NCBI GenBank assembly: GCA_965197475.1
Contig: CBDANF010000003.1
Coordinates: 3,840,001-3,904,000 of the forward strand
DNA length: 64,000 nucleotides
Origin: Candidatus Poribacteria bacterium
Lineage (GTDB): Bacteria > Poribacteria > WGA-4E > WGA-3G
Reading direction: 5' to 3'
Program-made: the position numbers and the translations under genes
Notes under the pieces: generated by a model
Seen by the model: the letters and a program-made list of their open reading frames with translations, nothing else
Told to the model about the DNA's origin: nothing
The model's database searches: none
Shown: positions 683 through 27,107 of the stretch, in pieces
Position numbering within the stretch: the first letter of the stretch is position 1
Layout of the letters: each line of letters begins with the position of its first letter

Positions 683-1684
683 ATGTCCATATTGATAGAC
701 CAAAACCAGCAAGTTCGCAACGATTTTAGGCTATTTGCCGGACGCGCGAACCCGGCTTTGGCAAAAGAGATCGCCGCGATTATAGGCGTTGAACTGGGTA
801 AAATTACAATCGGTCCATTTCCTAACAGCGAAACAAAAGTACAACTTGAAGAAAGTGTTCGGGGAACAGACATCTATCACATTCAACCTACGTGTGAACC
901 CGCTAACGAAAACCTGATGGAACTTCTCCTCACGATTGATGCGATGAAACGCGCATCGGCACGGCAGATCACCGCAATTATTCCATACTTCGGGTATGCC
1001 CGTCAAGATCATAAAACGACAGGGCGCGAACCAATTAGCGCGAAGCTTGTAGCAAATCTAATAACCACTGCAGGTGCAAGTCGTGTCATGGCGATCGATT
1101 TACACGTCCCACAGATCCAAGGTTTCTTTGATATTCCGATGGATCATCTCACTGCCCTAACAACTTTGGCAAATTATTTCCGTGAAAAACAGATTGAAAA
1201 CGGCGTGATTGTTGCACCTGATGTTGGGCGTGCAAAGCTTGCAGAAAAATACGCCAAAATTCTTCGTCTCCCATTAGCCATTATGCATAAGCGGCGGAAC
1301 GGTGCTGATGGACAAGATGTCGAATTCGTTGAACTTGTTGGTGACGTGAAGGGTAAAACCCCGATTGTTATTGATGATGAAATTGCAACGGGAGGTAGTA
1401 TTTACGAGCAAGCACAAGCGTTGGCAGCAGCGGGCGCAAAACCTGCTTATGTCAGCATCGCACATGCAGTGCTCGTTGGTCCCGCATTGGAACGACTCAG
1501 TCATCCTTCAATTCGTGAAGTGGTCACCACAGATACAATTCCTGTCCCAGCTGAAAAGCAACTTGATGGGAAAATCAAAGTGCTTTCCATTGCCCCACTT
1601 CTCGCTGAAGCCATTCTCAGAGTTCACCAACACAGATCCGTGAGTCAAGTTTTCAGAGATCAACATCTCGATTTTCCGGTGTAA
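683..1684 (+). CDS. prs: Ribose-phosphate pyrophosphokinase
   Basis: Motifs IPYFGYARQD, DLHVPQIQGFF, VAPDVG, IDDEIATGGS; AAGGAG RBS upstream. Confidence 0.96.
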   Translation: MSILIDQNQQVRNDFRLFAGRANPALAKEIAAIIGVELGKITIGPFPNSETKVQLEESVRGTDIYHIQPTCEPANENLMELLLTIDAMKRASARQITAIIPYFGYARQDHKTTGREPISAKLVANLITTAGASRVMAIDLHVPQIQGFFDIPMDHLTALTTLANYFREKQIENGVIVAPDVGRAKLAEKYAKILRLPLAIMHKRRNGADGQDVEFVELVGDVKGKTPIVIDDEIATGGSIYEQAQALAAAGAKPAYVSIAHAVLVGPALERLSHPSIREVVTTDTIPVPAEKQLDGKIKVLSIAPLLAEAILRVHQHRSVSQVFRDQHLDFPV

Positions 1685-1715: not shown

Positions 1716-2828
1716 ATGATTCATATACTTTACCTTAGTCATTGTGGATCAAACGTCGGTGGGGGCGAAAAACAACTTTTTTACCTTGTTACACATCTGG
1801 ACAGAAAACGTTATCAACCGATCATTGTCTGTCCAGACGACGGTATATTCACTGAACAATTAAGGGAAGCGAATATCCTCACCACTGTTCTCAATCTTCC
1901 CCCATGGCGTCGAGTTATATCTCGTTTTACTCGCCACACCGCTGCTGCTAAGTTAACCGACCTCGCAATAAAGCACAATATACAATTAGTCCATACCTCC
2001 GATTCGTGGCTCAACTCGTATATGTTGCAAGTTAAAAATCAACTGAACATTCCTGTTATTTCGCATGTGCGGAATCTTTTAACACCTGCACAAGTTGCAA
2101 AGTATGAATTTGATCGTGTCAATCGCATCATTGCGATCTCTGAACAGAGTAAAACTCCACTTATTCAAGCAAGTATTTCTTCTGAAAAAATTGATGTTAT
2201 CTTAAACTGTGTTGATCTTTCCGTTTTTCAACCTGATCCTATAGATAATAAACAATCGGAACCTTTTGTGGTCGGGATAGTAGGTAGGATTGAACCCTTT
2301 AAACGCCAAAAAACTTTTGTTGAGATAGCATCTCAGGTTGTCAAGCAGTGCCAAAACGTTCGATTTCACATCATTGGTGCTGCGCTTGATACACCTGAGC
2401 ATCGCGCTTATGATAAAGAGGTTCGTCAATTGGTATCCCAATATAAGTTAGAAGAGGTGATACATTTCACGGGACATCGTAACGACATGCCCTGCGCAAT
2501 GCGAGAACTTGACCTATTGGTTACATTATCAGCTGGGAGTGTCATCGCTGAAGCGATGGCATCGGGTAAACCTGCCATCGGCACGCCAATCGGTAGCACC
2601 TCTGAAATGATTGTAGACAGTGTAACAGGATATGTTATACCTTTAGACTCAATTGAGGCAATCGCAGATAGGATTGTTCAACTTGCTGGAAATCCTGCGC
2701 GCTGTGTTCAGATGGGTGCTGCAGCCAGAAAACATGCAGAGAATGTTTTCTGCGTTGAAAAGCATGTCCAAAAGGTGCAGAACATATATGAAAAACTAAT
2801 TGAAACTAATAATGAGAATAGTGTATAA
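1716..2828 (+). CDS. Glycosyltransferase family 4 (GT-B fold)
   Basis: N-terminal GGGEKQ, GIVGRIEPFKRQ, FTGHRND, EAMASGKP. Confidence 0.9.
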   Translation: MIHILYLSHCGSNVGGGEKQLFYLVTHLDRKRYQPIIVCPDDGIFTEQLREANILTTVLNLPPWRRVISRFTRHTAAAKLTDLAIKHNIQLVHTSDSWLNSYMLQVKNQLNIPVISHVRNLLTPAQVAKYEFDRVNRIIAISEQSKTPLIQASISSEKIDVILNCVDLSVFQPDPIDNKQSEPFVVGIVGRIEPFKRQKTFVEIASQVVKQCQNVRFHIIGAALDTPEHRAYDKEVRQLVSQYKLEEVIHFTGHRNDMPCAMRELDLLVTLSAGSVIAEAMASGKPAIGTPIGSTSEMIVDSVTGYVIPLDSIEAIADRIVQLAGNPARCVQMGAAARKHAENVFCVEKHVQKVQNIYEKLIETNNENSV

Positions 2829-2857
2829 TTATGTCATAATATCATGGAGGGATAGAA

Positions 2858-3280
2858 ATGCCAACACTTGAAGTTACTAATATCAAAGCTACTAATATCG
2901 CAGAAGTTGATGAAGCCCTGAAGCATTTTGATCATTTTCATGATGATTACGTTGCGGGGATCGAAATTAAGTTTGAAAATTACAAAGGCTTAGATGAGAA
3001 TGGCGAGGCTACAGGAATCGGAAGTGCTGATAAGACAATTATTCTCACGATCAACTACTACCCTTATGGAAAAGAACATGAACAGTTCGTTTGTGTCGAA
3101 TTTAAGGGTGTCAAATCATTTGAAATATCATCGGCACTGCAGGATTATGGACCAACATGGGGAATTGATTCCGTATTGACTCAATCTGAAGGAATAGATA
3201 TAAAATGGGAATTTTATTGGATATGTGGTGAGACGAAGTTTATAGTCGTTTGCACAGAAATAGTTTTTTCTACCCAATAA
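2858..3280 (+). CDS. Hypothetical protein with weak resemblance to Imm50-type immunity proteins
   Basis: 140-aa ORF with GGAGG RBS; FHDD motif followed by beta-strand pattern VEFKGVKSFEI. Confidence 0.55.
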   Translation: MPTLEVTNIKATNIAEVDEALKHFDHFHDDYVAGIEIKFENYKGLDENGEATGIGSADKTIILTINYYPYGKEHEQFVCVEFKGVKSFEISSALQDYGPTWGIDSVLTQSEGIDIKWEFYWICGETKFIVVCTEIVFSTQ

Positions 3281-3403
3281 AACCTCATTTATGATTTTAA
3301 TAGAACCCGACGCGAATAATTAGAGGAAATGAGCAGCCCCGCATTGCGGAAGAAATTTTCCAGGAACTTGCGTAGAATAGCAACATCACATCAAGGAGAC
3401 GAC

Positions 3404-4267
3404 ATGATGCTTACACAGGCACAACTTGATTTTTATGAAAAAAATGGCTATCTCGGTGTTGAGGCTGTGTTAACCGATGCGGAGGTAGCAGCACTTCGTC
3501 GTGTTACCGATGAATTTGTTGAAAAATCGAGAGAAGCCACAGAACATAACGACATTTTCGATCTTGAACCTGGACACTCCGCTGCAAACCCACGCGTACG
3601 CCGTATCAAAAATCCATGTCTATACCATACAGTCTATGACCAGACCTTACGCCATCCTAATATCCTTGGCATTGTTGCCCAGCTCATCGGAGATGGGATT
3701 CGGTATAACGGACACAAACTCAATATGAAATACCCTGAATTTGGTAGTCCCGTTGAATGGCATCAGGATTGGGCGTTTTACCCACACACGAATGACGACC
3801 TGCTTGCAGTTGGCGTAGTTATTGACGACATGACTGTAGAAAATGGAGCACTGATGATACTTCCGGGTTCCCACAAAGGACCAACCCTGAATCATCACCA
3901 AAACGGTGCTTTTATTGGTGCTGTTACCGACCTCGATTTCACGCCAGATGGTGCTGTGCCTATTGAGTTGAAAGCAGGTGGAATTACGATCCATCACGTT
4001 CGAGCCTTACACGGATCTGCGCCAAACACCTCTGACAAACCTCGCCGCTTGATGCTTTTCCAGTATTGTGCTGTGGATGCTTGGCCGCTGAAAGGCATTC
4101 CAGATTGGGATACATTCAACGACTTCATTATTCAAGGTGAACCCACAAACCAACCGCGTATTGTCCCTACGCCAGTACGTATGCCCGAACCTTATTCCGA
4201 AAAGAAGGGTTCAATCTATGAAGTTCAATCTCTCCTTGAAAACCCAATTTATGCGAAAGAGCAGTAG
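3404..4267 (+). CDS. Phytanoyl-CoA dioxygenase (PhyH) family Fe(II)/2-oxoglutarate dioxygenase
   Basis: FYEKNGYL, WHQD, ENGALMILPGSHK, HGSAPN, RR; start moved to ATG 3404 after AAGGAG. Confidence 0.92.
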   Translation: MMLTQAQLDFYEKNGYLGVEAVLTDAEVAALRRVTDEFVEKSREATEHNDIFDLEPGHSAANPRVRRIKNPCLYHTVYDQTLRHPNILGIVAQLIGDGIRYNGHKLNMKYPEFGSPVEWHQDWAFYPHTNDDLLAVGVVIDDMTVENGALMILPGSHKGPTLNHHQNGAFIGAVTDLDFTPDGAVPIELKAGGITIHHVRALHGSAPNTSDKPRRLMLFQYCAVDAWPLKGIPDWDTFNDFIIQGEPTNQPRIVPTPVRMPEPYSEKKGSIYEVQSLLENPIYAKEQ

Positions 4268-4469
4268 TTAGATTAAGGTTTCCCAAAAACCCACGTAATC
4301 CATAATTCAGATAACATACATCCCATAAAATACAGATGCGTTTTTAGCTGACATCTCTTAGATCCACTACGTCCCGACTAATCTAAATCTATTACGTTCC
4401 AATAGCTATAGTCAAATCTAAATAGTATACAGAGTGTGTCAAATTAAGAAATTTTGTTGCGTAAATTTA

Positions 4470-12639: not shown

Positions 12640-13905
12640 ATGAGAAGCAATAATATCTTTCTTATCTGCTGCGTATTGTTGTTTGCAAGTTGTGGGATAT
12701 TGACAACAAAACCGATCGAAACCCCACCGCCAACAACGCCTTGTGACTCACTCGAAAAACTACATACTGATATAGATACTGTTTTGCAGGACGTGTTGTT
12801 TACAACTGCAAGTATCGGCATAAAGGTGGTTGCAGTTGAAACAGGTGAGGTGGTTTACGCTAAAAACGCGCAAAAATTACATCATCCCGCTTCTACGACG
12901 AAACTCTTTACGGCAGCAACTGCTCTGGCGAAACTGGGATCGGACTATCAGTTTGAAACAACGCTTTATATTGATATGGCTACAGACGCACAAATGGTAG
13001 AAAATGTCTATCTCAAAGGCAGTGCTGATCCGGTGCTTCAGTCTGAAGATATAGTAAAATTGTGTGATGCGTTAGTTCAATCTGGCATAACCTCAATAGA
13101 GGGTGACATTGTTATTGACGAAACCTACCTTGACACTGTTCGGGAAGGTCCAGGATGGATGTGGGATGATAAACTACTTCGGATTAGTGCTTTAAGTATC
13201 CGAAGCATTGAACCTGATACGAGCATGGAAAGTAGAGCCATCGCATGTGGACATCTTCTGAAAACCACACTGATGCAAAAAGGCATTAATGTAGTAGGAC
13301 AGGTGGTATCGGGAAAGGTGCCATCAGATGCACGTAGTGTCGCTACACATCTGTCGCCGCCACTTGCCGACATTATCAAATTGATGAATAAACCGAGCGA
13401 CAATTGGATTGCGGAGTTCCTTTTCAAAACAATTGGTGCTGAAGTGAAAGGCGAACCGGGAACATGGAAAAAAGGGAGAGAGGCTGTCACTGAATTTTTA
13501 GGTGAAATAATGGGTGAACCACCTGCACACCGATTTGTTGATGGTTCTGGACTTTCTCGGTACAATCTCCTCAACACTGAATTGCTCACAAAGCTGCTTG
13601 TTTATATGTATCACAATTTTGAGTTGATGCCAGAGTATATGGCATCGCTGCCGATTGCTGGTGTTGATGGCACGTTAAAAAATCGGATGCAAGGGATGTA
13701 TGCTGAAAAAACATTGCGTGCAAAAACGGGGACGTTGAGTGGTGTTTCCGCGCTTGCTGGCTATACCAAAACAGCGGAAGGTGAAGTATTTGCATTCGGT
13801 ATTCTTATTAGCCATTATGTTGGATCGGCGACATCAGCGCGGGGTATTCAGGATAAAATTGGGAATTATCTAGCTCGGTTTAGTCGGCATTTGACTAAAG
13901 AATAA
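12640..13905 (+). CDS. dacB: D-alanyl-D-alanine carboxypeptidase/endopeptidase (PBP4, peptidase S13), lipoprotein
   Basis: PASTTK (SxxK), SDN, DGSGLSR, KTGT; lipobox LFASC; start moved to ATG 12640. Confidence 0.9.
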   Translation: MRSNNIFLICCVLLFASCGILTTKPIETPPPTTPCDSLEKLHTDIDTVLQDVLFTTASIGIKVVAVETGEVVYAKNAQKLHHPASTTKLFTAATALAKLGSDYQFETTLYIDMATDAQMVENVYLKGSADPVLQSEDIVKLCDALVQSGITSIEGDIVIDETYLDTVREGPGWMWDDKLLRISALSIRSIEPDTSMESRAIACGHLLKTTLMQKGINVVGQVVSGKVPSDARSVATHLSPPLADIIKLMNKPSDNWIAEFLFKTIGAEVKGEPGTWKKGREAVTEFLGEIMGEPPAHRFVDGSGLSRYNLLNTELLTKLLVYMYHNFELMPEYMASLPIAGVDGTLKNRMQGMYAEKTLRAKTGTLSGVSALAGYTKTAEGEVFAFGILISHYVGSATSARGIQDKIGNYLARFSRHLTKE

Positions 13906-14104
13906 TTCCTGAGAGAGTATGAGTAAAGAAAGTGCTGTTCTATCAAAGCATTTTGCTTGTTCTTTAGATTCTTGTATGCTATAATAATTGAGAATTGTGA
14001 CGTAGATCCAACAAGATAGTGAAATGCATTGTCTCCAGGGTTTCATCCGCCATTGAAAATAGATACATCTTTTGAGACAGTATACATACTATACGACTAA
14101 TTTT

Positions 14105-14425
14105 ATGCGAATAGTTCGAGAAAATGAATTAACGAAATTTGCTATACGACATCCTAATACACGAGATTCTCTTAACCGTTGGACACAATTGATGAGGGAA
14201 GGAAATTTTAAGTTAATTATTGAGTTGCGTGAAACGTTCGGACGCGTTTCTCCAGTGAAGGTTCGTCCTCAAAGATTTAATCGCAACCCAATTACACTGA
14301 CGGTTTTCAACATTAGTGGAAATGATGCTCGCCTGATTACAGTTGTTCAGTACACAATGCAGGTTGTGGTTATTGATCAGGTGTTAACTCATAACGAATA
14401 TGATACAGGAAATTGGAGAAAATGA
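14105..14425 (+). CDS. higB: Type II toxin HigB (RelE superfamily mRNA interferase)
   Basis: MRIVRENELTKF..HP...SLNRW...ELRETF...VFNISGNDARLI...VLTHNEYD matches the E. coli-type HigB pattern; extended -10 TGCTATAAT at 13977-13985. Confidence 0.9.
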   Translation: MRIVRENELTKFAIRHPNTRDSLNRWTQLMREGNFKLIIELRETFGRVSPVKVRPQRFNRNPITLTVFNISGNDARLITVVQYTMQVVVIDQVLTHNEYDTGNWRK

Positions 14426-14428
14426 ATT

Positions 14429-16525
14429 ATGTTAACTGAGATGTCTATTGGACAAAAATTGTCACAAACATCAACATATTCAGAATCTAATTTCTCCCTT
14501 GATTACACTGAGATTAGCACTTTACTCCAAAAAGAGGCAATTGCTGAGTTCAGTGTGAAGCAGCTGAATATGATGTCGGAATTTGCACCTGAAATTTTGA
14601 TGTTTCCTTCTGAACCAAAGCATACCTCTACACAACAAATTGAATTTGATCCTTACCCAGAAAGCGATTACGAATGGCTTGAGGAAGTTCTAAAAGGGTT
14701 AACTGACTTAGTAATGCAAAACGAGAATCATGATTTTGCCTCATTGACAAAAACTGATTATAAAAGACTTGATGAAACGTTGAAAGAGTTAATCTATATC
14801 GTCGGTGATAATGATGAACATCCCTTGGCATCATTGATGGATTTTATCGGTGTTCTCACCACAAAGTATGAAAATGATCATTTTCCAAAACTGACAGATT
14901 TATTTCCTGAACTAATGGAAGGAGTAAATCCGAACTACATGAAAGATGAGGATAAAAGGGAAAATCCTACCAGTGCATCTGAAAAATCCATAAACGCTTT
15001 AGCCGCAGAGGCTTTTTTCTCCATCGGAAACCTTTTTTTGGAAGGAGGTAAGAAAAAAGATGCAATTTCTGCTTACGATCAGGCAATACGTTTGCATCGA
15101 AATTACGCTATGGCTTTCTACTATCGCGGCGAAGTTAAACGGGCACAGAGAAATTATGAATCTGCAGTTGACGACTTTAATGAAGTACTTCGGATTAATC
15201 CTGTTGATATTTATGCCTACCTCAGACGTGCCAGTGTAAAATGCGCGCTGAGTCAATATGAAACTGCTATTGCTGATTTCGATGAAGTTATCCAATTGAA
15301 TTCGGATGAAGTTTGTGTTTACTCTGCTTACCTCATTCGCGGTTGTATAAATAGGGTACTTGGTCAATATGAGGCTGCCATTACTGACGTTAATAACGCA
15401 CTTCAATTAACAGTGGATGAGACCTCTGTCCATATTGCTTACGCGACTCGGGGCGGTGCAAGAAACGCTCTTGGGCAACATAAGGAAGCTATTTGTGATT
15501 TTAACGAGGTTCTTTTACACAACCCAGATGATGGAACAACGTATTTTATGCGAGGGTACGCAAAGTCAGTGCTAGGTCAACATGAGGCTGCGATTGCTGA
15601 TTATAACGAAGCATTACACTATAACTCTGACGATGCGGAGACCTACTTCAGACGGGGACTAAGTAAGGTAATGCAAGAAATGTTGGATTCTGCCATTGCT
15701 GACTTTGATGAGAGTATCCGACTTAGACCAGATTATTTCTATATTTTCCTTATGCGGGGAGTAGCGATGTTCATGAAAGGGGAACTTGAAGAAGCGATTA
15801 AAGACCTCAATATAGCCCTAAACCTAAAAGTTGATTCTGCTATAGATATGACAGATTTTGCTTATTTCCTCCGTGGAAATGTAAAAAGTCTGATCGGACA
15901 GTACGCAGACGCTATTATAGACTATAGTGAGACCATTCGATTAAAACCCAATTATCCACAAGCATACAAAAGCAGAGGGGATGCAAAGCGGGAATTAGGT
16001 CAACTTGAAGATGCTATTGTTGATTATGATAGTGCTCTCTGCTTAAAACAGGATGCTGTTACCTATTATAACCGTGGATATATAAAAGGACAGTTAGAAA
16101 GACACGAGTTTGCAATTCGTGACTACAGCGAGGCTATCCGACTCGATCCAGATTATGCGTATGCTTACCTTAACAGAGGAATTGATCAAGGTAAACTAGG
16201 TCAACTTGAAGATGCTATTGCTGACTTTGATAAGACTATCCAATTAAATAAAGATTGTATCTATGCTTACCACAATCGTGGAATTTCTAAAATCTTACAA
16301 GGTAACTATGAAGATGCTATTGCTGACTGTACCGAATCCATCTGTCTTAGTTTGGATTATGCTGAAGCCTATGATACACGAGGTAAAGCAAATCTCATAT
16401 TGGGTAGAACTCAGGAAGCAAGAATAGATTTTCAAAAAACTTTGGAATTGGCAGAACAAGAAGACAACCAAGAACTTATAGATGAAGTTAAACAATCACT
16501 GCAAGAACTTGACAACACTGAGTAG
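14429..16525 (+). CDS. HigA-like antitoxin N-terminal helices fused to about 14 TPR repeats, no HTH
   Basis: DYKRLDETLKELIYIVGDNDEHPLASLMDFIGVLTTKYENDHFP resembles a HigA N-terminus; 14 units of AY..RG...G.YE.AI.D...AI.L.P; starts 3 nt after the higB stop. Confidence 0.85.
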   Translation: MLTEMSIGQKLSQTSTYSESNFSLDYTEISTLLQKEAIAEFSVKQLNMMSEFAPEILMFPSEPKHTSTQQIEFDPYPESDYEWLEEVLKGLTDLVMQNENHDFASLTKTDYKRLDETLKELIYIVGDNDEHPLASLMDFIGVLTTKYENDHFPKLTDLFPELMEGVNPNYMKDEDKRENPTSASEKSINALAAEAFFSIGNLFLEGGKKKDAISAYDQAIRLHRNYAMAFYYRGEVKRAQRNYESAVDDFNEVLRINPVDIYAYLRRASVKCALSQYETAIADFDEVIQLNSDEVCVYSAYLIRGCINRVLGQYEAAITDVNNALQLTVDETSVHIAYATRGGARNALGQHKEAICDFNEVLLHNPDDGTTYFMRGYAKSVLGQHEAAIADYNEALHYNSDDAETYFRRGLSKVMQEMLDSAIADFDESIRLRPDYFYIFLMRGVAMFMKGELEEAIKDLNIALNLKVDSAIDMTDFAYFLRGNVKSLIGQYADAIIDYSETIRLKPNYPQAYKSRGDAKRELGQLEDAIVDYDSALCLKQDAVTYYNRGYIKGQLERHEFAIRDYSEAIRLDPDYAYAYLNRGIDQGKLGQLEDAIADFDKTIQLNKDCIYAYHNRGISKILQGNYEDAIADCTESICLSLDYAEAYDTRGKANLILGRTQEARIDFQKTLELAEQEDNQELIDEVKQSLQELDNTE

Positions 16526-16548
16526 AATAGACATCTTCATTCACACCA

Positions 16549-17307
16549 CTACGAAATATCAGGTGGCGGCTCACCCACAGCAGACTTCCCATCTTTCAAC
16601 AACGGCTCCGCACTACCCCACAAACGGCTACCATCGTGTGAAAGAAGAGGCTCTGCGGAATACTGTGCAAGGTACGCACGCCGCATCGTGTTTGTAGAGT
16701 TCGTGCCGCTACAGTGAAAATTGATACTTGTAAACACAACAATGCTCCCCGCAGGCACGATGGCAGGCACACCCTTTTCCGGACCGAAATATCCCACAAG
16801 ATCGTTGCTTTCCTCATCACGGATATGCTTCACCCACGAACGAACGCCAATGTGTGAAAACGGCATAACATATACTGTGCCATTCTCCTCAGACATATCA
16901 TCAAGCGCACACCAGCATGTTAGATAAGGTTTATGATCCGGGTAACCGACATAACCTGAATCCTGATGCCAACTAAACTTCATACCTGCCTCAGCACCTT
17001 TGACAACATACTGTTCCCAAAAAAGATAAGCGGTATCACCTAAGGTAGCACGGCATACATCAGCCATCAGATCGCTGCACAGAAATTCTCGAAGCGTTGG
17101 TTGTTGTCTGAAGCAGTTTGAAACAAAATAACGTTTGTTCCTATGATTAAGACCGAGCACATCTGTGTTTTCCCGATCCATCCGCTCATCCATCTGACTG
17201 ATGAATGTTCCGCATTCGCCACGAAGCAGCTCAGGAATCACACTCTCCAAAATGAAGTAGCCTTCTTTTTGGTACTGCTGCTTCTGTTCATCGGTTATGT
17301 TTATCAC
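16549..17307 (-). CDS. PhyH family dioxygenase
   Basis: YQKEGYF, FSWHQDSGY, ENGTVYVMP, FHCSGTN..RR; GTG start at 17307 after AGGAG. Confidence 0.9.
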   Translation of the reverse strand: MINITDEQKQQYQKEGYFILESVIPELLRGECGTFISQMDERMDRENTDVLGLNHRNKRYFVSNCFRQQPTLREFLCSDLMADVCRATLGDTAYLFWEQYVVKGAEAGMKFSWHQDSGYVGYPDHKPYLTCWCALDDMSEENGTVYVMPFSHIGVRSWVKHIRDEESNDLVGYFGPEKGVPAIVPAGSIVVFTSINFHCSGTNSTNTMRRAYLAQYSAEPLLSHDGSRLWGSAEPLLKDGKSAVGEPPPDIS

Positions 17308-19418: not shown

Positions 19419-21746
19419 ATGATCTATAAAACCTTTTCATATTGGCTGTGGTTCACAGGTTTTGGGGTTTTAGCATTGGTACTTGCCACAGTACCACTGT
19501 TTAATATCCTTGCTTTCGAGTTTTGTGCGATTATTACACTCTGTATAACTTTTGCTGGTGCACATGTGGCAATGACCGAATTACAGGTTATGAAACGGGA
19601 TCCGGATGTTCTCACTGGATCGCCTCGTCATATAGTTCTGAGGTGTTTTTTACGTGCATTGAGGTCTAATGCTCTATTACTCATATTACCACTTACCATA
19701 ATCTTACTTAATGCGTTCCGCGTTAAAAACTGCAATTTTACCGAAGGATTTCTTTTTTTCTTCATATTGCCAATACTCAGTTGTGTTGCTGTAACGGCAG
19801 CTGGCGTGTTTTTCAATATCTGGATAGCAAAACGGTGGCTTGCATATCTGGCATATCTCGCGTTTCTGATTCTTTCATGTGTTCCTGCCATAACAAATTT
19901 GATTTTTCATCCGCCAGTATTTGCTTTTCATCCTATTCTCGGATATTTTCCTGGACCAATTTACGATTTTGTGATTCCAATTACATCTGTGCTGTTAACA
20001 GCACGAGTAAAAACGCTTTTATGGGCAATACTATTCTTAACAATTTCAATCTATGCATGTGAAGTTGGCAGGGAAACAAGTTTCGTTCCTAAACTTCGGT
20101 GGCGAAACCTTATACAACATCCTTCTGAGAATTCACTTTGGCGAATTATATCGGTATGCGTATTGGTTGTGGCAATAGTCAGTTTCGAATTTTTCTCAGG
20201 GAAATTATGGATACGTCCAACGCGTGGCGACATCGCACAAGAATTGGGTGGCTATAGAGAAACAGCGCATTTTGAAATCTTCTATGCCCGTGAACTTGAG
20301 GAAGAAATAGATCTATTTGCGGACGATTGTGAGTTTCGTTATACTCAGTTGTCTGGCTATTTGCAGACACAAATTTCAAGGAAAGTTCGCGCTTATCTGT
20401 ATGCGTCCCCTGAACAGAAAAAAAGACTGATCGGGGCTGGGAGTACATTTGTTGAAGACCCGTTTGGTTACGGATTTCACATCCATTCACTAAGTTTCCC
20501 ACATCCTGTTCTAAAACATGAACTTGTCCACGTGTTGACTGCCGATTGGTCACCTTGGAATGTTAGTTTGAACGTAGGAGTCCACGAAGGCATCGCGGTT
20601 GCTGCAGACTGGGATGAGGGAAAACTTACAGTCCATCAATGGGCTAAAGCAATGCATCAATTTAAGGTTGCACCACCCCTCTCCAGTGTCATGAGTATCG
20701 GGTTTTGGAGACACGCGAGCTCGCGAAGTTATCTGCTTGCAGGATCCTTTATCCGTTTCCTTGTGAACACTTATGGATTAGATAAGTTAAAAAGTGCTTT
20801 TCCGTTTGGGAATTTGTCGAAAAGTTTCGCGAAAGATTTGAGTGTTTTGGAGAGAGAATGGACTAAATTCTTATTAAACGAAGTGACTTTGCAAGACAGC
20901 GAGATATCTTATGTCGAACGCCGTCTAAAACACGGCGGAATCTTTGAACAAGTATGTGCTCATGAAATGGCGGCATTACGAGAGAAATCTTGGCAGGCAT
21001 TTTATAGGAAAGATTACGTTTTTGCAGCCCAAACGTTTCAACAGATGCTGTCGGATGAACCTGATAATTCAATAACATTGCGAGGATTGATGTTCAGCAC
21101 ATTTTACACCGGAGATTTTGACCTTACTATATCCCATGCAAAACGAATTATTTCTAATGAAAAAGCATCTTATAGAGCTGAGGCGGCACAACTATTAGGA
21201 GATATTTATTGGCTTCAGGCTAAACATGAAGATGCGCTATCTGCCTATACAAAAGCAGTTTTGCTCGCGCCTCGCGAAACAGTAGAACAGAATCTTTTCA
21301 AACGTAAAGCGGCACTTTCGGAAACTTATACATCTGATTCAAAAAGACGGTTGCGGCGTATTCTTATTTCAAACACTCATGCAGAACGCATTGGGAGTGC
21401 AACAAAAATGGCTTTACTACAGCAAGTTATCGGTGCTGAACCTGACGCTTGGTTAGCCTATTTTTTGGCAGGGGAGTTACTTCATAAAGAAAAGGCTTGG
21501 GAGCTAAGCACACAATATCTCCACCATGCGTTAGACTTGAGCCGAAAAAAAGATAAGGAGATAATACCACCTCAACTTGCATTGAAATCCCGTTGGTTAT
21601 TGGGGATCAATGCATTTCGCCAGAAAGATTACAAAATTGCCGAAAAAATGTTTTCAGCAATAGCGACCAATCAAACATTATCTTTGGGAACTAAACTTTC
21701 TGCACAAGATTGGATTCAACGGTGTCAGCATGCCCGAAAGATGTAG
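19419..21746 (+). CDS. Polytopic membrane protein fused to a gluzincin-type metallopeptidase domain and TPRs
   Basis: About 7 hydrophobic helices; HELVH...HEGIA zinc motif; SY..AGSFIRFL; C-terminal TPR-like helices. Confidence 0.75.
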   Translation: MIYKTFSYWLWFTGFGVLALVLATVPLFNILAFEFCAIITLCITFAGAHVAMTELQVMKRDPDVLTGSPRHIVLRCFLRALRSNALLLILPLTIILLNAFRVKNCNFTEGFLFFFILPILSCVAVTAAGVFFNIWIAKRWLAYLAYLAFLILSCVPAITNLIFHPPVFAFHPILGYFPGPIYDFVIPITSVLLTARVKTLLWAILFLTISIYACEVGRETSFVPKLRWRNLIQHPSENSLWRIISVCVLVVAIVSFEFFSGKLWIRPTRGDIAQELGGYRETAHFEIFYARELEEEIDLFADDCEFRYTQLSGYLQTQISRKVRAYLYASPEQKKRLIGAGSTFVEDPFGYGFHIHSLSFPHPVLKHELVHVLTADWSPWNVSLNVGVHEGIAVAADWDEGKLTVHQWAKAMHQFKVAPPLSSVMSIGFWRHASSRSYLLAGSFIRFLVNTYGLDKLKSAFPFGNLSKSFAKDLSVLEREWTKFLLNEVTLQDSEISYVERRLKHGGIFEQVCAHEMAALREKSWQAFYRKDYVFAAQTFQQMLSDEPDNSITLRGLMFSTFYTGDFDLTISHAKRIISNEKASYRAEAAQLLGDIYWLQAKHEDALSAYTKAVLLAPRETVEQNLFKRKAALSETYTSDSKRRLRRILISNTHAERIGSATKMALLQQVIGAEPDAWLAYFLAGELLHKEKAWELSTQYLHHALDLSRKKDKEIIPPQLALKSRWLLGINAFRQKDYKIAEKMFSAIATNQTLSLGTKLSAQDWIQRCQHARKM

Positions 21747-23747: not shown

Positions 23748-26700
23748 CTAAACTTCTGGGAGTGCATACACACCCCATCGCACCTTTACAATCTCACCGA
23801 GTTTGGTAAGCCGCACGAGTTCATGATGTATCGCTGCTGGGTTTCCATCAATAGCTGCGATCATTTCAGCTGCTTTTTTCTCACCATTGGCGAGGAAAGA
23901 GAGGATTTGTTCGCGGAAGGTTGAATCTAGAAGCTTACCGCCCCTGAGCTTTTGTAGCACACGGTGCGCCTGCCTTTCAGAGCATCCCAAGACCTGCTGC
24001 ACTTTGTCTTTGCCGGATTCAGCCGTTAGATTGTCACGTTCCGTTTCAAAACGTTGACGTGTTTCTATCATTTTAGCCAGTCTATCTAACCCGCCAGCTA
24101 TCTCAAAATCTTCCCAATCGAAAAGAAGCGTTTCAGGTCTGTCGGTAATATCTGGCAACGGCAAGCCTGTGAGCAGCATGACTTTCTTACCGGTCTGGCG
24201 ATTCAACTGCGCGTGTCCTACAAATTGCGTGATGACCCGGACCATTGCCGCTTCATAAACACTCTGAACCCGTTCGTCTTTATAGTGATAGGGATCCGTT
24301 TCTCGGTCATAACAGAGCGGTTTGTCATCATTTCCGAACAGCACTTGCGAACGTTCCCAAATGACACCTATTGGTCGCTCCGGCAATCCGATTATCCAGA
24401 TGACATCTGCCCCTTCAGGATCGGTGTTCACACCGACTGTGCTACCGATATCGGTTAGGAAACAGACGTTCTCCGTTGCTACGATCTTCTCCAACTTATT
24501 TTGCATTAGCCAACCCGCGACAATTAGATGCTTAACGCTCGGTTCTCTTTCAATTTCTGCACGAATACCAGCAAAAATGCGTTGTCCTATTTTGGAAACG
24601 CCAATCGCCTTCCATACATTGCCGTAGTCTAAAATTGCCTCGCGTGGATAAAGACCTGTGCGAATCTGAAAAACCTGGTTTCCCGTTAGCCACGGTGTTG
24701 GCTTAATACGACTCACTTCAATATCATCATTTGGAAACGTTTTACGAAGGTGCTGCTCAGAAAGTGTTATTGCCATTAACACAAGTTTTTTTACACTCGG
24801 GTGCAGCACCGGTGGCACCCTGAATCTCAAAACTTTATGCTTCCACCACCGAATCGGTGCGTCAGCATCTCGCGTGTAGGACGCAAAAAAGCACTTGAGC
24901 TGATGCCAATACGTCCAAGTTGGATCCGGACAGACTGTCGGGAATGTCTGAATGCACTGTATGTTCTCAAGACACAAGATACCTAATTGAATTGCTTGTG
25001 CCATCGGCATCGGGATTCTCGTGTCTTCGCTTAGCACGAAATCTCGAAGTGAGAAAACAAGTAGTCCCTTCGCTGTGAGTCTATCTGCGGCGTTTTCGTT
25101 TAAAGGGATGTAAGCAGCGGCACCACCCTCAAACTCAATAGTAAAGCGCGCCAATTCCTTGTCAGTATCTTCATCAACCGTCCCCCGCTTTACCACCCTG
25201 CCCCGCACGTTGACGTGGCACATCTGATAGATAAGTTCTTTTTCTTGCCATTCAAACGTCTGTATCACAGTGCGGACCCGTTTGACAGCATCGCTATGGG
25301 TGTTACCTCTAATTTCTAAAGCATTTAGTAAGGCGTTGGCAAAGTTTCCTAAAGCACTCCCTTGCCAGTTTACAATCCACGCCTCCATTACGGTTCTTGG
25401 GAGTCTACATACCAGGAACAGATCGTACGCCTGCACATGATTGAGGATACAAACCCGATTTTCTGTTTCAAATATCTCTTCAGTCACTTTCGCGTGTTGT
25501 GGATCGAAAAAGAGTTGGGGTGACTCCAATATCTGTGTTTTGGCGCGTTGTAATGCGGCGGGTTGCGATAAATATCCACGTTCCTGACACGCTGTCCAGA
25601 CGGGACACTGCGGACATATAATCTCGCTTGGGTTTCCACCCTTTTCCTCAAGCGTTTGGCACCGTTCTGCATCCTCACAGACATTGCCGTGTTGAAACGG
25701 GTTCACTATACGCACATCAAAAGGTATATCTTTCACCTGCTCCCAGAGATGCATCCGAGGTTTCCAACGGACGACCGATGGCAGATTCTGATTTTGAAGA
25801 CGTTGTTCTGCTTCTTCCGCTAACGTGGCGGTCGGCACGTTTAGGCAGGTTACCCTGTTGTTGAGGAGATGGAATTCTGTATCATCACCTGCCTCAACAT
25901 TAAGTCCGATAATGTGTGCTTTTCTGTCAAACGGACGCTGCAGCTGCGCGGCAGTCTCTTCAGAAGACCCATAAGCGTTTTGAGGAACTTCCGGCTTATG
26001 CAGCATCGGCGCGGGACGTCTTACCGCCAATGGACTCAGTTTTCCTTCCTGCACAACGAGCATATTATCGGAGACAGGTAGTGTAGACGCGAGTGTCGGT
26101 GGCACAATACCGGTCTCGTTCCATATATCTGTTATGGGGGTTGCTTCCATAGGAAGTCCAGCATTAGGAGTTAGGGTGCGGACCCATACAGTGTCCTCGT
26201 TTTCCCACAACAGGACCTCTGTGTTGCTAACATCGCCGCCGTGTTGTGTCCAGTGGTGAAAACCGTTCTCCTGTCGTAAGTACGTGAAACCGCGCTTCAG
26301 AAACGCCTCTTTTGCGAGATCAAGATTCTGTGAGCCGAGGGATGATGGCGTATTAGTGACAATCTGTTCCTGTATGTGGTCGGAAGCTGGTTCGTGCAGT
26401 TTCACGCGGAGTGCATCAAGTGGAGCAAAGAGAACTTCCTTTGAAATCATAGGGGGGTCTAACAAATTTCCCAAGAGAATCTCGTAACGTGCATCCCAAC
26501 GGCTATATCCCTTTTCACCAAATATTTCGAGGTAAACATCTCGGTGATATGGATTTTTCAGGGTCGGTGTGTGTTTATAGGTGTACAGCTTTTCCTCTAT
26601 AGTGTCCGAATGGAGGTAATCCTGGATTCTGCAAGAGAAACGCAGCCCGCCAGACTTTGACAGCGTTAATAGCGGGTTCACAACGGAGTTGACAAGTGCC

Positions 26701-27107
26701 TCAATACAGGCGAAGACGGCATCGGGGGCGGCAAGAATCGCTTCATATTTGAAATCGATATCGTGCCATCGCGCGCTGTTGCGTTCTGAGGGGACACCGG
26801 TGTAAATCTGAATTCCCCAGGATGCGTCCCATCGTCTGGTTCGCCACTCTTTCATCCCTTGGCGTGTGAAGAACCGGTGCCCTCCAAAATCTCTGGGTCC
26901 CCTATCGTAATCGGGTGCGCGCCCTATTGGCATAAAGGAAATTTCCGCCTGCTCCAGGTCATCAAGCAGCACAGGATGCTTGTATGCGCAATAAACTTTA
27001 TACTGATGCGGATAACCTTTGCTCAACATGGCAGGTGTCGGCACCGTTTTCCGCTGCTTAAGCGATTTTTTATGCCGTTGGTGGCAGCATTCAATAATAT
27101 TTTTCAA
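23748..27107 (-). CDS. Large hypothetical protein: degenerate Prim-Pol-like N-terminus, Cys cluster, helicase-like region, C-terminal winged HTH
   Basis: 1119-aa ORF; GIQIYTG, HDIDF, SKSGGLRF, EIFGEKGY; CEDAERC...CPQCPVWTAC; LVRLTKLGEIVKVRWGVY. Confidence 0.6.
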   Translation of the reverse strand: MKNIIECCHQRHKKSLKQRKTVPTPAMLSKGYPHQYKVYCAYKHPVLLDDLEQAEISFMPIGRAPDYDRGPRDFGGHRFFTRQGMKEWRTRRWDASWGIQIYTGVPSERNSARWHDIDFKYEAILAAPDAVFACIEALVNSVVNPLLTLSKSGGLRFSCRIQDYLHSDTIEEKLYTYKHTPTLKNPYHRDVYLEIFGEKGYSRWDARYEILLGNLLDPPMISKEVLFAPLDALRVKLHEPASDHIQEQIVTNTPSSLGSQNLDLAKEAFLKRGFTYLRQENGFHHWTQHGGDVSNTEVLLWENEDTVWVRTLTPNAGLPMEATPITDIWNETGIVPPTLASTLPVSDNMLVVQEGKLSPLAVRRPAPMLHKPEVPQNAYGSSEETAAQLQRPFDRKAHIIGLNVEAGDDTEFHLLNNRVTCLNVPTATLAEEAEQRLQNQNLPSVVRWKPRMHLWEQVKDIPFDVRIVNPFQHGNVCEDAERCQTLEEKGGNPSEIICPQCPVWTACQERGYLSQPAALQRAKTQILESPQLFFDPQHAKVTEEIFETENRVCILNHVQAYDLFLVCRLPRTVMEAWIVNWQGSALGNFANALLNALEIRGNTHSDAVKRVRTVIQTFEWQEKELIYQMCHVNVRGRVVKRGTVDEDTDKELARFTIEFEGGAAAYIPLNENAADRLTAKGLLVFSLRDFVLSEDTRIPMPMAQAIQLGILCLENIQCIQTFPTVCPDPTWTYWHQLKCFFASYTRDADAPIRWWKHKVLRFRVPPVLHPSVKKLVLMAITLSEQHLRKTFPNDDIEVSRIKPTPWLTGNQVFQIRTGLYPREAILDYGNVWKAIGVSKIGQRIFAGIRAEIEREPSVKHLIVAGWLMQNKLEKIVATENVCFLTDIGSTVGVNTDPEGADVIWIIGLPERPIGVIWERSQVLFGNDDKPLCYDRETDPYHYKDERVQSVYEAAMVRVITQFVGHAQLNRQTGKKVMLLTGLPLPDITDRPETLLFDWEDFEIAGGLDRLAKMIETRQRFETERDNLTAESGKDKVQQVLGCSERQAHRVLQKLRGGKLLDSTFREQILSFLANGEKKAAEMIAAIDGNPAAIHHELVRLTKLGEIVKVRWGVYALPEV

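Follow-up and report, generated by a model that had tools for sequence, protein, structure and literature searches.

Related systems and a Poribacteria variant

The closest described counterpart of the module reported here is the HigB-HigA toxin-antitoxin (TA) pair of Escherichia coli K-12 and Shigella (YgjN-YgjM; PDB 5IFG, 5YCL, 6KML). The helix-turn-helix (HTH) of E. coli K-12-type HigA is C-terminal (PMC7984235, PMC6987408), and one helix of this antitoxin is involved in dimerisation (PMC7984235). The module lies in a 64,000-nucleotide stretch of a Candidatus Poribacteria bacterium genome (assembly GCA_965197475.1, contig CBDANF010000003.1, positions 3,840,001 to 3,904,000, forward strand), hereafter the window, in whose own coordinates positions are given. 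There, a higB gene is followed by a gene for a 698-aa protein predicted to join a HigA-type N-terminal domain (N-domain) to 14 tetratricopeptide repeats (TPRs). The window pair shares with the E. coli and Shigella pair the toxin family PF09907, the tight toxin-first order and a homologous antitoxin N-domain. Compared with E. coli HigA, however, the window antitoxin lacks the C-terminal Xre HTH, has a duplicated first N-domain helix, and adds a 74-aa disordered leader and a 14-TPR tail.

Two phage-defence systems also invite comparison. In HigBAC, a third component senses phage lambda gpV (Mets et al., 10.1101/2024.02.24.581848). Toxin-antitoxin-chaperone (TAC) systems such as HigBAC resemble the window module in combining a HigBA-type warhead with a third, protein-binding component, which there governs both the antitoxin and phage sensing. 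They also resemble it in that this component is modular with different toxins, as TPRs here are linked to HigB- and MazF-type pairs. They differ in that a TPR solenoid, not a SecB-like chaperone, is here fused to the antitoxin; no chaperone-addiction (ChAD) element was identified in the window module, and for that module sensing is something that we only infer. PD-lambda-2, which acts in phage defence, pairs a HigB-like toxin with a HigA-like domain that bears an additional domain at its C-terminus; its component PD-lambda-2B couples an Xre HTH to a peptidase, and the system also requires a third gene, of P4-antitoxin-like type (Vassallo et al., 2022; PMC9519451). The likeness lies in the HigB-like first component and in a second component that couples an antitoxin-like domain to an additional C-terminal domain, whereas the window partner has neither HTH nor peptidase.

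TPR solenoids are familiar as ligand-switched modules. RRNPP receptors (Rap, NprR, PlcR, AimR) and the TPR sensors of Avs/STAND proteins place an N-terminal effector or binding domain before a C-terminal TPR solenoid that is switched by a ligand. We use them as a working analogy for a ligand-gated antitoxin and claim no homology; unlike them, the window protein has no HTH, phosphatase or nucleoside triphosphatase (NTPase) domain, and it comes from a different phylum. No antitoxin-TPR fusion was described in the full-text literature searched, and database relatives of the fusion (6 homologous proteins, 10 clusters) are without names. The module is a HigBA or tripartite TA variant that has neither the HTH of canonical HigA, nor the SecB of TAC systems, nor the HTH-peptidase of PD-lambda-2. 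We read it as a variant type II HigBA system of the E. coli K-12 HigB/HigA lineage, with a TPR-gated antitoxin, within a tripartite toxin/antitoxin/TPR family, and regard the case for this reading as evenly balanced.

A HigB toxin and an antitoxin without HTH

The higB product matches the Pfam family HigB_toxin PF09907 (E 3.3e-18; 66.2 bits against a cut-off of 27), the solved E. coli/Shigella HigB chains 5ycl_B, 5ifg_A and 6kml_A (E ~2e-4) and the PADLOC model PD-Lambda-2_A (E 1.4e-15). Alignment demonstrated that the conserved FNIxGN...THxEYD positions are retained, and from these matches we infer that HigB is a translation-dependent mRNA interferase. Its ATG at 14105 is kept in four orthologous loci; a TTG at 14072 was considered as the start and is unneeded, since ATG 14105 is the conserved one. 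The ratio of nonsynonymous to synonymous substitution rates (dN/dS) of higB against its ortholog at locus L024 is 0.18. The toxin gene precedes the antitoxin gene by a tight 3 nt, and the arrangement given in the preliminary description of this sequence, an intact higB followed 3 nt later by a 698-aa gene, is borne out by the coordinates of the open reading frames (ORFs). A 19-aa loop before 'LTVFNI' (aa ~48-66, window 14246-14300), basic and proline-rich, is 11 aa longer than its counterpart in E. coli K-12/Shigella HigB. This loop measures 19-26 aa in 19/19 measurable HigBs that are linked to fusions and 8-10 aa in 8/8 measurable HigBs with other partners; the long form is probably a single inherited event.

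The N-part of the 698-aa protein matches no Pfam, NCBIfam or PADLOC family (one weak, unrelated Pfam match at E <= 10). It found no match in the PDB by phmmer, a mixed N-domain profile returned spurious low-complexity PDB matches only, and the ESM Atlas gave no usable match. Residues 54-158 correspond over the full length to the 105-aa protein that stands alone as the partner of another HigB of this genome (E 4e-21, 40% identity); that protein carries neither HTH nor TPR. HMMER with aa 1-190 against 1.84 billion representatives retrieved 216 proteins at E <= 1e-3, among them numerous proteins that combine N-domain and TPRs and numerous short forms that stand alone. Three relatives of 134-143 aa end in a C-terminal HTH_3 (E 3e-5 to 1.3e-4), and two of these match E. 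coli HigA (5ifg_B, 5ycl_A) along their entire length (E 2e-10, 5.5e-11). When a profile of 19 HTH-less N-domains, headed by that of the window, was compared by hhalign with one of 14 HTH-bearing HigAs, the probability was 99.2% (E 7.5e-20), with window aa 104-170 corresponding to canonical HigA 30-102; the HTH-bearing profile in turn matches E. coli HigA 5ifg_B whole-length (E 3.4e-19). The N-domain is also internally duplicated, aa 78-106 being 45% identical to aa 108-136 (E 5e-7). The preliminary description had seen HigA-like helices at residues ~75-155, and the profile-profile comparison upholds this: judged by homology, aa ~78-160 is a HigA-type N-terminal domain. Together with HigB it quite probably forms a true neutralising pair, as the sequence relationships suggest.

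An AlphaFold2 model of the 698-aa protein was built from 34 homologues (mean predicted local-distance difference test score, pLDDT, 83.4). The three N-domain helices span 78-97, 108-125 and 134-151. Foldseek returned nothing at E <= 0.001; HigA chains rank 2, 3, 9, 10 and 24, at non-significant E values of 2-7. VIA-align scores of HigA chains are Z 3.7-4.5; the best superposition, that of 6kmq_B (Z 4.2; rmsd 2.6 A over 51 residues), is weak and pairs the residues that hhalign also pairs. The structure comparison is no more than compatible with HigA N-domain homology. The leader (aa 1-74) has pLDDT <50 and an occupancy of 0.58 over 34 fusions; homologues P0005 and P0009 are alignable with the fusion protein from residue 1. 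Behind a conserved DLFPEL motif, a disordered linker (aa 164-184) likewise has pLDDT <50, and L162 and E164 in the linker region are nearly invariant among the 34 fusions.

Pfam TPR_1 covers the protein from about aa 190 to 680 (E 2e-73). Thirteen repeats were counted by motif and a 14th by eye, and the model contains 28 TPR helices (H188-H677) plus a capping helix (H681-696) at pLDDT >90; the cap has an occupancy of 0.86 across fusions. No HTH family is among the Pfam matches of the 698-aa protein, and the model leaves no space for one. A PADLOC scan of the protein returned a generic TPR model only and no PD-Lambda-2 model. No NACHT/NB-ARC NTPase is among the Pfam matches listed (the best 25 of 35 families), the model being filled by the N-domain and the TPRs. 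The preliminary count of 14 TPRs without HTH thus holds. Since the fusion antitoxin has no HTH, the operon would not be autorepressed by its own antitoxin; nor does the genome hold an HTH-bearing HigA for repression in trans, its three N-domain matches all being accounted for.

Distribution and phylogeny of the pair

A single-protein scan found only three close loci, the closest named records being Candidatus Poribacteria metagenome-assembled genomes (MAGs). A profile search of 40 relatives gave 100 matches in all, with the N-domain present in 23/24 genomes of the same genus. A survey of 150 genomes across the phylum (E <= 1e-10) found matches in 94/99 genomes of the bacterium's own family, 16/26 of a second family, 1/10 of a third and 0/15 of six others; three genera contain numerous long open frames (230-846 aa).

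For a census, the 100 profile matches and the three named loci, minus the window locus and duplicates, were classified by HMM and phmmer. The resulting 100 N-domain ORFs comprise 33 TPR fusions, 15 proteins with N-domain and HTH, and 52 with neither. A HigB ORF lies -35 to +210 nt upstream in 24/33 fusions, and the pairing named in the preliminary description therefore recurs in other genomes. By alignment, 17 of these 24 HigBs are seemingly full length and seven are truncated or degenerate (L007, L028, L035, L036, L039, L043, L045). Among the other fusions, tblastn found higB remnants at 6/33, including the own genome's second fusion (L031), and no trace of higB at 3/33 (L026, L037, L041). 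A Pfam TPR was found in 34/34 fusions and Pfam HigB_toxin in 26/26 toxin ORFs.

The own genome has three HigB loci. At the second (L031, G000:C2:841100-846900), a HigA-N/TPR fusion of 530 aa from subclade C (locus positions 2765-4357) follows a cut-off higB (98 aa), and an opposite-strand, transposase-like ORF of 319 aa separates toxin and fusion. At the third (L001, G000:C3:35819-39031; ORFs 1483-1770 and 1162-1479, minus strand), a 95-aa HigB is followed after 3 nt by a 105-aa antitoxin without HTH or TPR; an adjoining 350-aa ORF bears a DNA-methyltransferase-like motif, as read by eye. In the metagenome representatives P0026 (165 aa) and P0027 (160 aa), a HigB N-terminal fragment is in frame with the antitoxin N-domain, and these are apparent toxin-deletion fusions.

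A phylogenetic tree of 83 N-domains (18 rows with <55 matched profile positions left out; root not established) places all 34 fusions and three short ORFs in one group (SH-aLRT 87), which splits into three well-supported subclades. The window fusion sits in a six-member subclade of 440-721-aa proteins. Sister to the fusions are HTH-less antitoxins of 105 aa that stand alone; HigAs with an HTH make up a separate clade, far from these. A tree of HigB (38 rows) parallels that of the N-domains, which suggests that toxin and N-domain co-diverge. For HigB, N-part and TPR part, dN/dS ranges over 0.12-0.55 in six pairs, values that indicate purifying selection on each.

The preliminary description had further proposed that the HTH was replaced by a TPR receptor. 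As worded, this is not supported: direct replacement was rejected because the tree puts HTH-less stand-alone antitoxins next to the fusions, and members of this TPR family are also encoded by genes of their own. Given the HTH-less sister group and the separate TPR genes behind TA pairs, the likelier origin is an HTH-less antitoxin and a neighbouring TPR gene that were later joined.

The TPR array as a dedicated and exchangeable partner

A separate TPR ORF lies within 1 kb downstream of 10/52 stand-alone N-domain genes, three of them behind higB and seven at loci without it. The separate TPR proteins have a common conserved N-terminus of ~80 aa, and their first-repeat motif (ELAAHAWFSVG...) is the same as LAAEAFFSIG of the fusion. 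Chance adjacency of TPR genes to N-domain genes is unlikely because the same detection picks up just 55 TPR ORFs in the own genome, out of 10,823 ORFs >= 80 aa, though related genomes are non-independent. At several higB-less loci a PemK/MazF toxin gene directly follows the N-domain gene.

Three-gene or related arrangements without higB were seen at L081, L092, L094, L097, L046, L063, L088 and L091. They encode a 220-285-aa protein with a HigA-type N-domain and a tandem-repeat tail that ends in GNE(V/I)W. In most, another gene overlaps the end of this protein gene: by Pfam it is PemK/MazF in L081, L092 and L088, and in L097 it has no Pfam match. Such a gene is present in L046, L063 and L094 as well. 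A TPR gene follows about 370-770 nt further on at most of these loci; none was detected in L088. In L077 and L078, a 110-aa N-domain protein is followed directly by PemK.

Along the fusions, conservation is highest in the HigA core (majority fraction 0.70; N-domain range 0.60-0.70) and in TPR1 (0.69). Occupancies of the middle repeats are 0.10-0.62 and fusion lengths run from 214 to 721 aa, and the TPR variability across genomes raised in the preliminary description is evident in repeat number, sequence and length. In three pairs of fusions, identity was 82% in the N-part versus 44% in the TPR part, 75% versus 43%, and 85% versus 71%. Between the window and L024, the 1.4 kb at 14835-16234, which spans the linker and TPR1-12, agrees at 99-100% identity, with flanks at 77-94%. 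Because the TPR part is more diverged than the N-part in these pairs and the window array is near-identical to that of L024, these comparisons indicate that TPR arrays have been exchanged between lineages as cassettes, with the caveat that the L024-like stretch points either to recent recombination or to chimeric assembly of the MAGs.

Subclade B fusions (~360 aa; L004, L008, L009, L011-L014, L029 and others) have only 2-3 TPRs, and at several of their loci another TPR gene lies upstream of higB. A candidate HSDR_N_2 domain in the region behind these TPRs was rejected at 18.5 bits, under the cut-off of 25; the region may be nuclease-like.

Genomic context and putative promoter

Coordinates of the module and its parts are as follows.

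Features of the higB/fusion module in the window
Feature	Coordinates	Strand	Remarks
Whole module (promoter region, higB, fusion gene)	13892..16549	+	2.66-kb presence/absence segment
Extended -10-like motif TGnTATAAT	13977..13985	+	~120 nt 5' of higB
higB	14105..14425	+	106 aa; RelE-fold mRNA interferase family PF09907
Fusion ORF	14429..16525	+	698 aa; ATG start 3 nt past higB TGA
Fusion aa 1-74, N-terminal leader	14429..14650	+	Predicted disordered; poorly conserved except MLTE start
Fusion aa 78-160, HigA-type N-domain (by homology)	14660..14908	+	Three helices (predicted)
Fusion aa 161-187, 'DLFPEL' motif, then disordered linker	14909..14989	+	
Fusion aa 188-680, 14 TPRs	14990..16468	+	
Fusion aa 681-698, C-terminal capping helix and stop codon	16469..16525	+	

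The module contains no gene beyond higB and the fusion gene, and is flanked by a Peptidase_S13 (PBP4/dacB-like) gene and a PhyH dioxygenase gene (Pfam). It occupies the same site, with the same flanks, in four other genomes (L024, L025, L026, L010). Three genomes of the same genus (G001, G004, G024) are module-free, their flanking genes being spaced by only 53-200 bp. Defence or mobile genes were not found within ~10 kb of the module, and no tRNA was found near it. Further along the window, a 1119-aa ORF (23751-27107, minus strand) has no Pfam match at E <= 1e-5, and a 775-aa ORF (19419-21743, plus strand) has a weak TPR_12 match only.

Upstream of higB, the window reads TGcTATAAT, and the form TGnTATAAT is invariant in four orthologous loci of ~72% mean identity. 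A generic sigma-70 scan did not list this motif and a -35 match is absent, and 13880-14130 contains no inverted repeat or operator-like site. The extended -10 promoter that the preliminary description had assigned to the pair is thus in part sustained: the motif is conserved, whereas no -35 match accompanies it. We treat it as a consensus match with comparative support, that is, a putative promoter. In one study, contigs from four sponge metatranscriptome libraries match higB, its junction with the fusion gene and the TPR part at 90-99% identity. One contig bridges the junction, and 13500-13850 (the 3' end of dacB) has no contig coverage in any of the four runs. These contigs are a weak hint that the locus is expressed.

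A proposed TPR-gated antitoxin and its alternatives

In the system that we propose, HigB would be the toxin, an mRNA interferase by homology, and the three-helix N-domain (aa ~78-160) would bind and neutralise it, as its homologues, E. coli HigA and the 105-aa partner, suggest. Transcription would proceed without autorepression by the antitoxin, probably from the conserved TGnTATAAT promoter. The disordered linker of ~25 aa would tether the N-domain to the 14-TPR solenoid, which may bind a protein or peptide and so determine how available or how stable the antitoxin domain is. HigB could then be freed when a foreign or stress-related ligand occupies the TPRs, a ligand-driven release such as the preliminary description had suggested, or when a stabilising ligand is lost, in a manner that would resemble SecB-like chaperone gating in HigBAC systems. 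As the TPR accompanies antitoxins either fused or as a separate third gene, the system would therefore be functionally tripartite. That the TPR array is a ligand-responsive gate rather than a passive scaffold seems, by analogy with HigBAC and PD-lambda-2, to have slightly less than an even chance.

Several points weigh against this proposal. The assumed toxin-binding role of the N-domain follows that of E. coli K-12 HigA, whose N-terminal domain is reportedly the toxin-binding part, and in the structure comparison generic three-helix bundles of MIT domains outscore the HigA chains (Z 5.1-5.4). In the MazF-linked relatives, the long C-terminal tail may be the real MazF binder, and the N-domain there could be a TPR-docking or dimerisation module. 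The greatly varying number of internal repeats is awkward for one fixed binding surface. Sixteen of the 33 fusions are ORFs kept without an intact cis higB, and in L026 the ortholog (721 aa) persists at the same site with higB entirely gone. Genomes of one family are non-independent observations, and the metatranscriptome evidence consists of contigs, so DNA carry-over is possible. Finally, by Pfam the genes around the module are metabolic or housekeeping genes; a defence-island context was ruled out by these neighbours and the absence of a nearby tRNA, and the context gives a defence role no support. Close relatives of the N-domain were not found on viral contigs by a method that detects close relatives only.

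The housekeeping context would also suit a TPR array that senses nothing and stands in for the dimerisation or architecture of the lost HTH, leaving an ordinary addiction or stress TA module; the array may then help to form an assembly of the HigB-(antitoxin)2-HigB type or protect the antitoxin against proteolysis. In E. coli K-12-type HigA the C-terminal part holds the HTH and one helix takes part in dimerisation (PMC7984235), and loss of that part would call for another oligomerisation device; moreover, TPR1 and the C-terminal cap are conserved and the internal repeat number is free, as in a spacer or scaffold. However, the stand-alone 105-aa antitoxins pair with HigB without HTH or TPR, so no scaffold is strictly needed. 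A 14-repeat solenoid that is under purifying selection (dN/dS 0.12-0.36) and apparently exchanged as a cassette exceeds a dimerisation patch, and unfused genes for the TPR encode a conserved N-terminal region of their own. We consider a passive scaffold unlikely.

The fusions that have outlived their toxins, the syntenic L026 ortholog among them, would be expected if the TPR array were cargo with a cellular or sponge-host-directed function of its own, of the sort that has been suggested for repeat proteins in sponge symbionts. HigB and the N-domain would then stabilise it or hitch-hike with it, or the N-domain would confer immunity to paralogous HigBs, with the toxin dispensable and decaying. 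Several HigB loci per genome (three in the own genome) make neutralisation in trans conceivable, and TPR proteins and TA systems are both reported as enriched in sponge symbionts. Yet the window higB is intact and under purifying selection (dN/dS 0.18), toxin and N-domain appear to co-diverge, and no signal peptide is visible by eye at the fusion N-terminus. The same TPR family is, in addition, tied to two unrelated toxin families, pointing to a TA-related role, and we judge the cargo explanation to be improbable.

Finally, that the pair is a decaying, non-functional remnant, with the fusion an accident of a TPR-rich genome, is very improbable: truncated toxins, truncated fusions or an insertion sequence (L031, own genome) do mark many related loci, and there is no autoregulatory domain, but neither of the window ORFs is broken, a single bacterial family keeps the architecture (94/99 sampled genomes match) with many long frames, all parts are under purifying selection, the promoter motif is conserved, and metatranscriptome contigs cover the locus.

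Implications for Poribacteria

Returning to the TPR-gated antitoxin, a wider proposal is tentative, with the balance leaning clearly against it: Poribacteria may hold a previously undescribed tripartite toxin/antitoxin/TPR class, in which the small HTH-less HigA domain would be a portable antitoxin handle for two toxin folds or more, HigB and MazF among them. The TPR array would be an exchangeable receptor for phage or sponge-host proteins that decides toxin release, and the extra loop of fusion-linked HigBs could be a second contact gripped by the solenoid.

How type II TA modules are triggered is a long-standing question, and the best-understood cases join a sensing component to a TA warhead, as do TAC chaperones and fused toxin-antitoxin sensors. 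The Poribacteria loci offer a natural series, from the antitoxin alone through the antitoxin with a separate TPR gene to fused TPRs, swapped cassettes and two toxin families, in which the effect of an added protein-binding module on an antitoxin can be studied. They suggest that the HigA N-domain is able to function, or at least to be retained, when its DNA-binding half is missing. TPR proteins and TA systems, both of them genomic hallmarks of sponge symbionts, would here be joined in one system.

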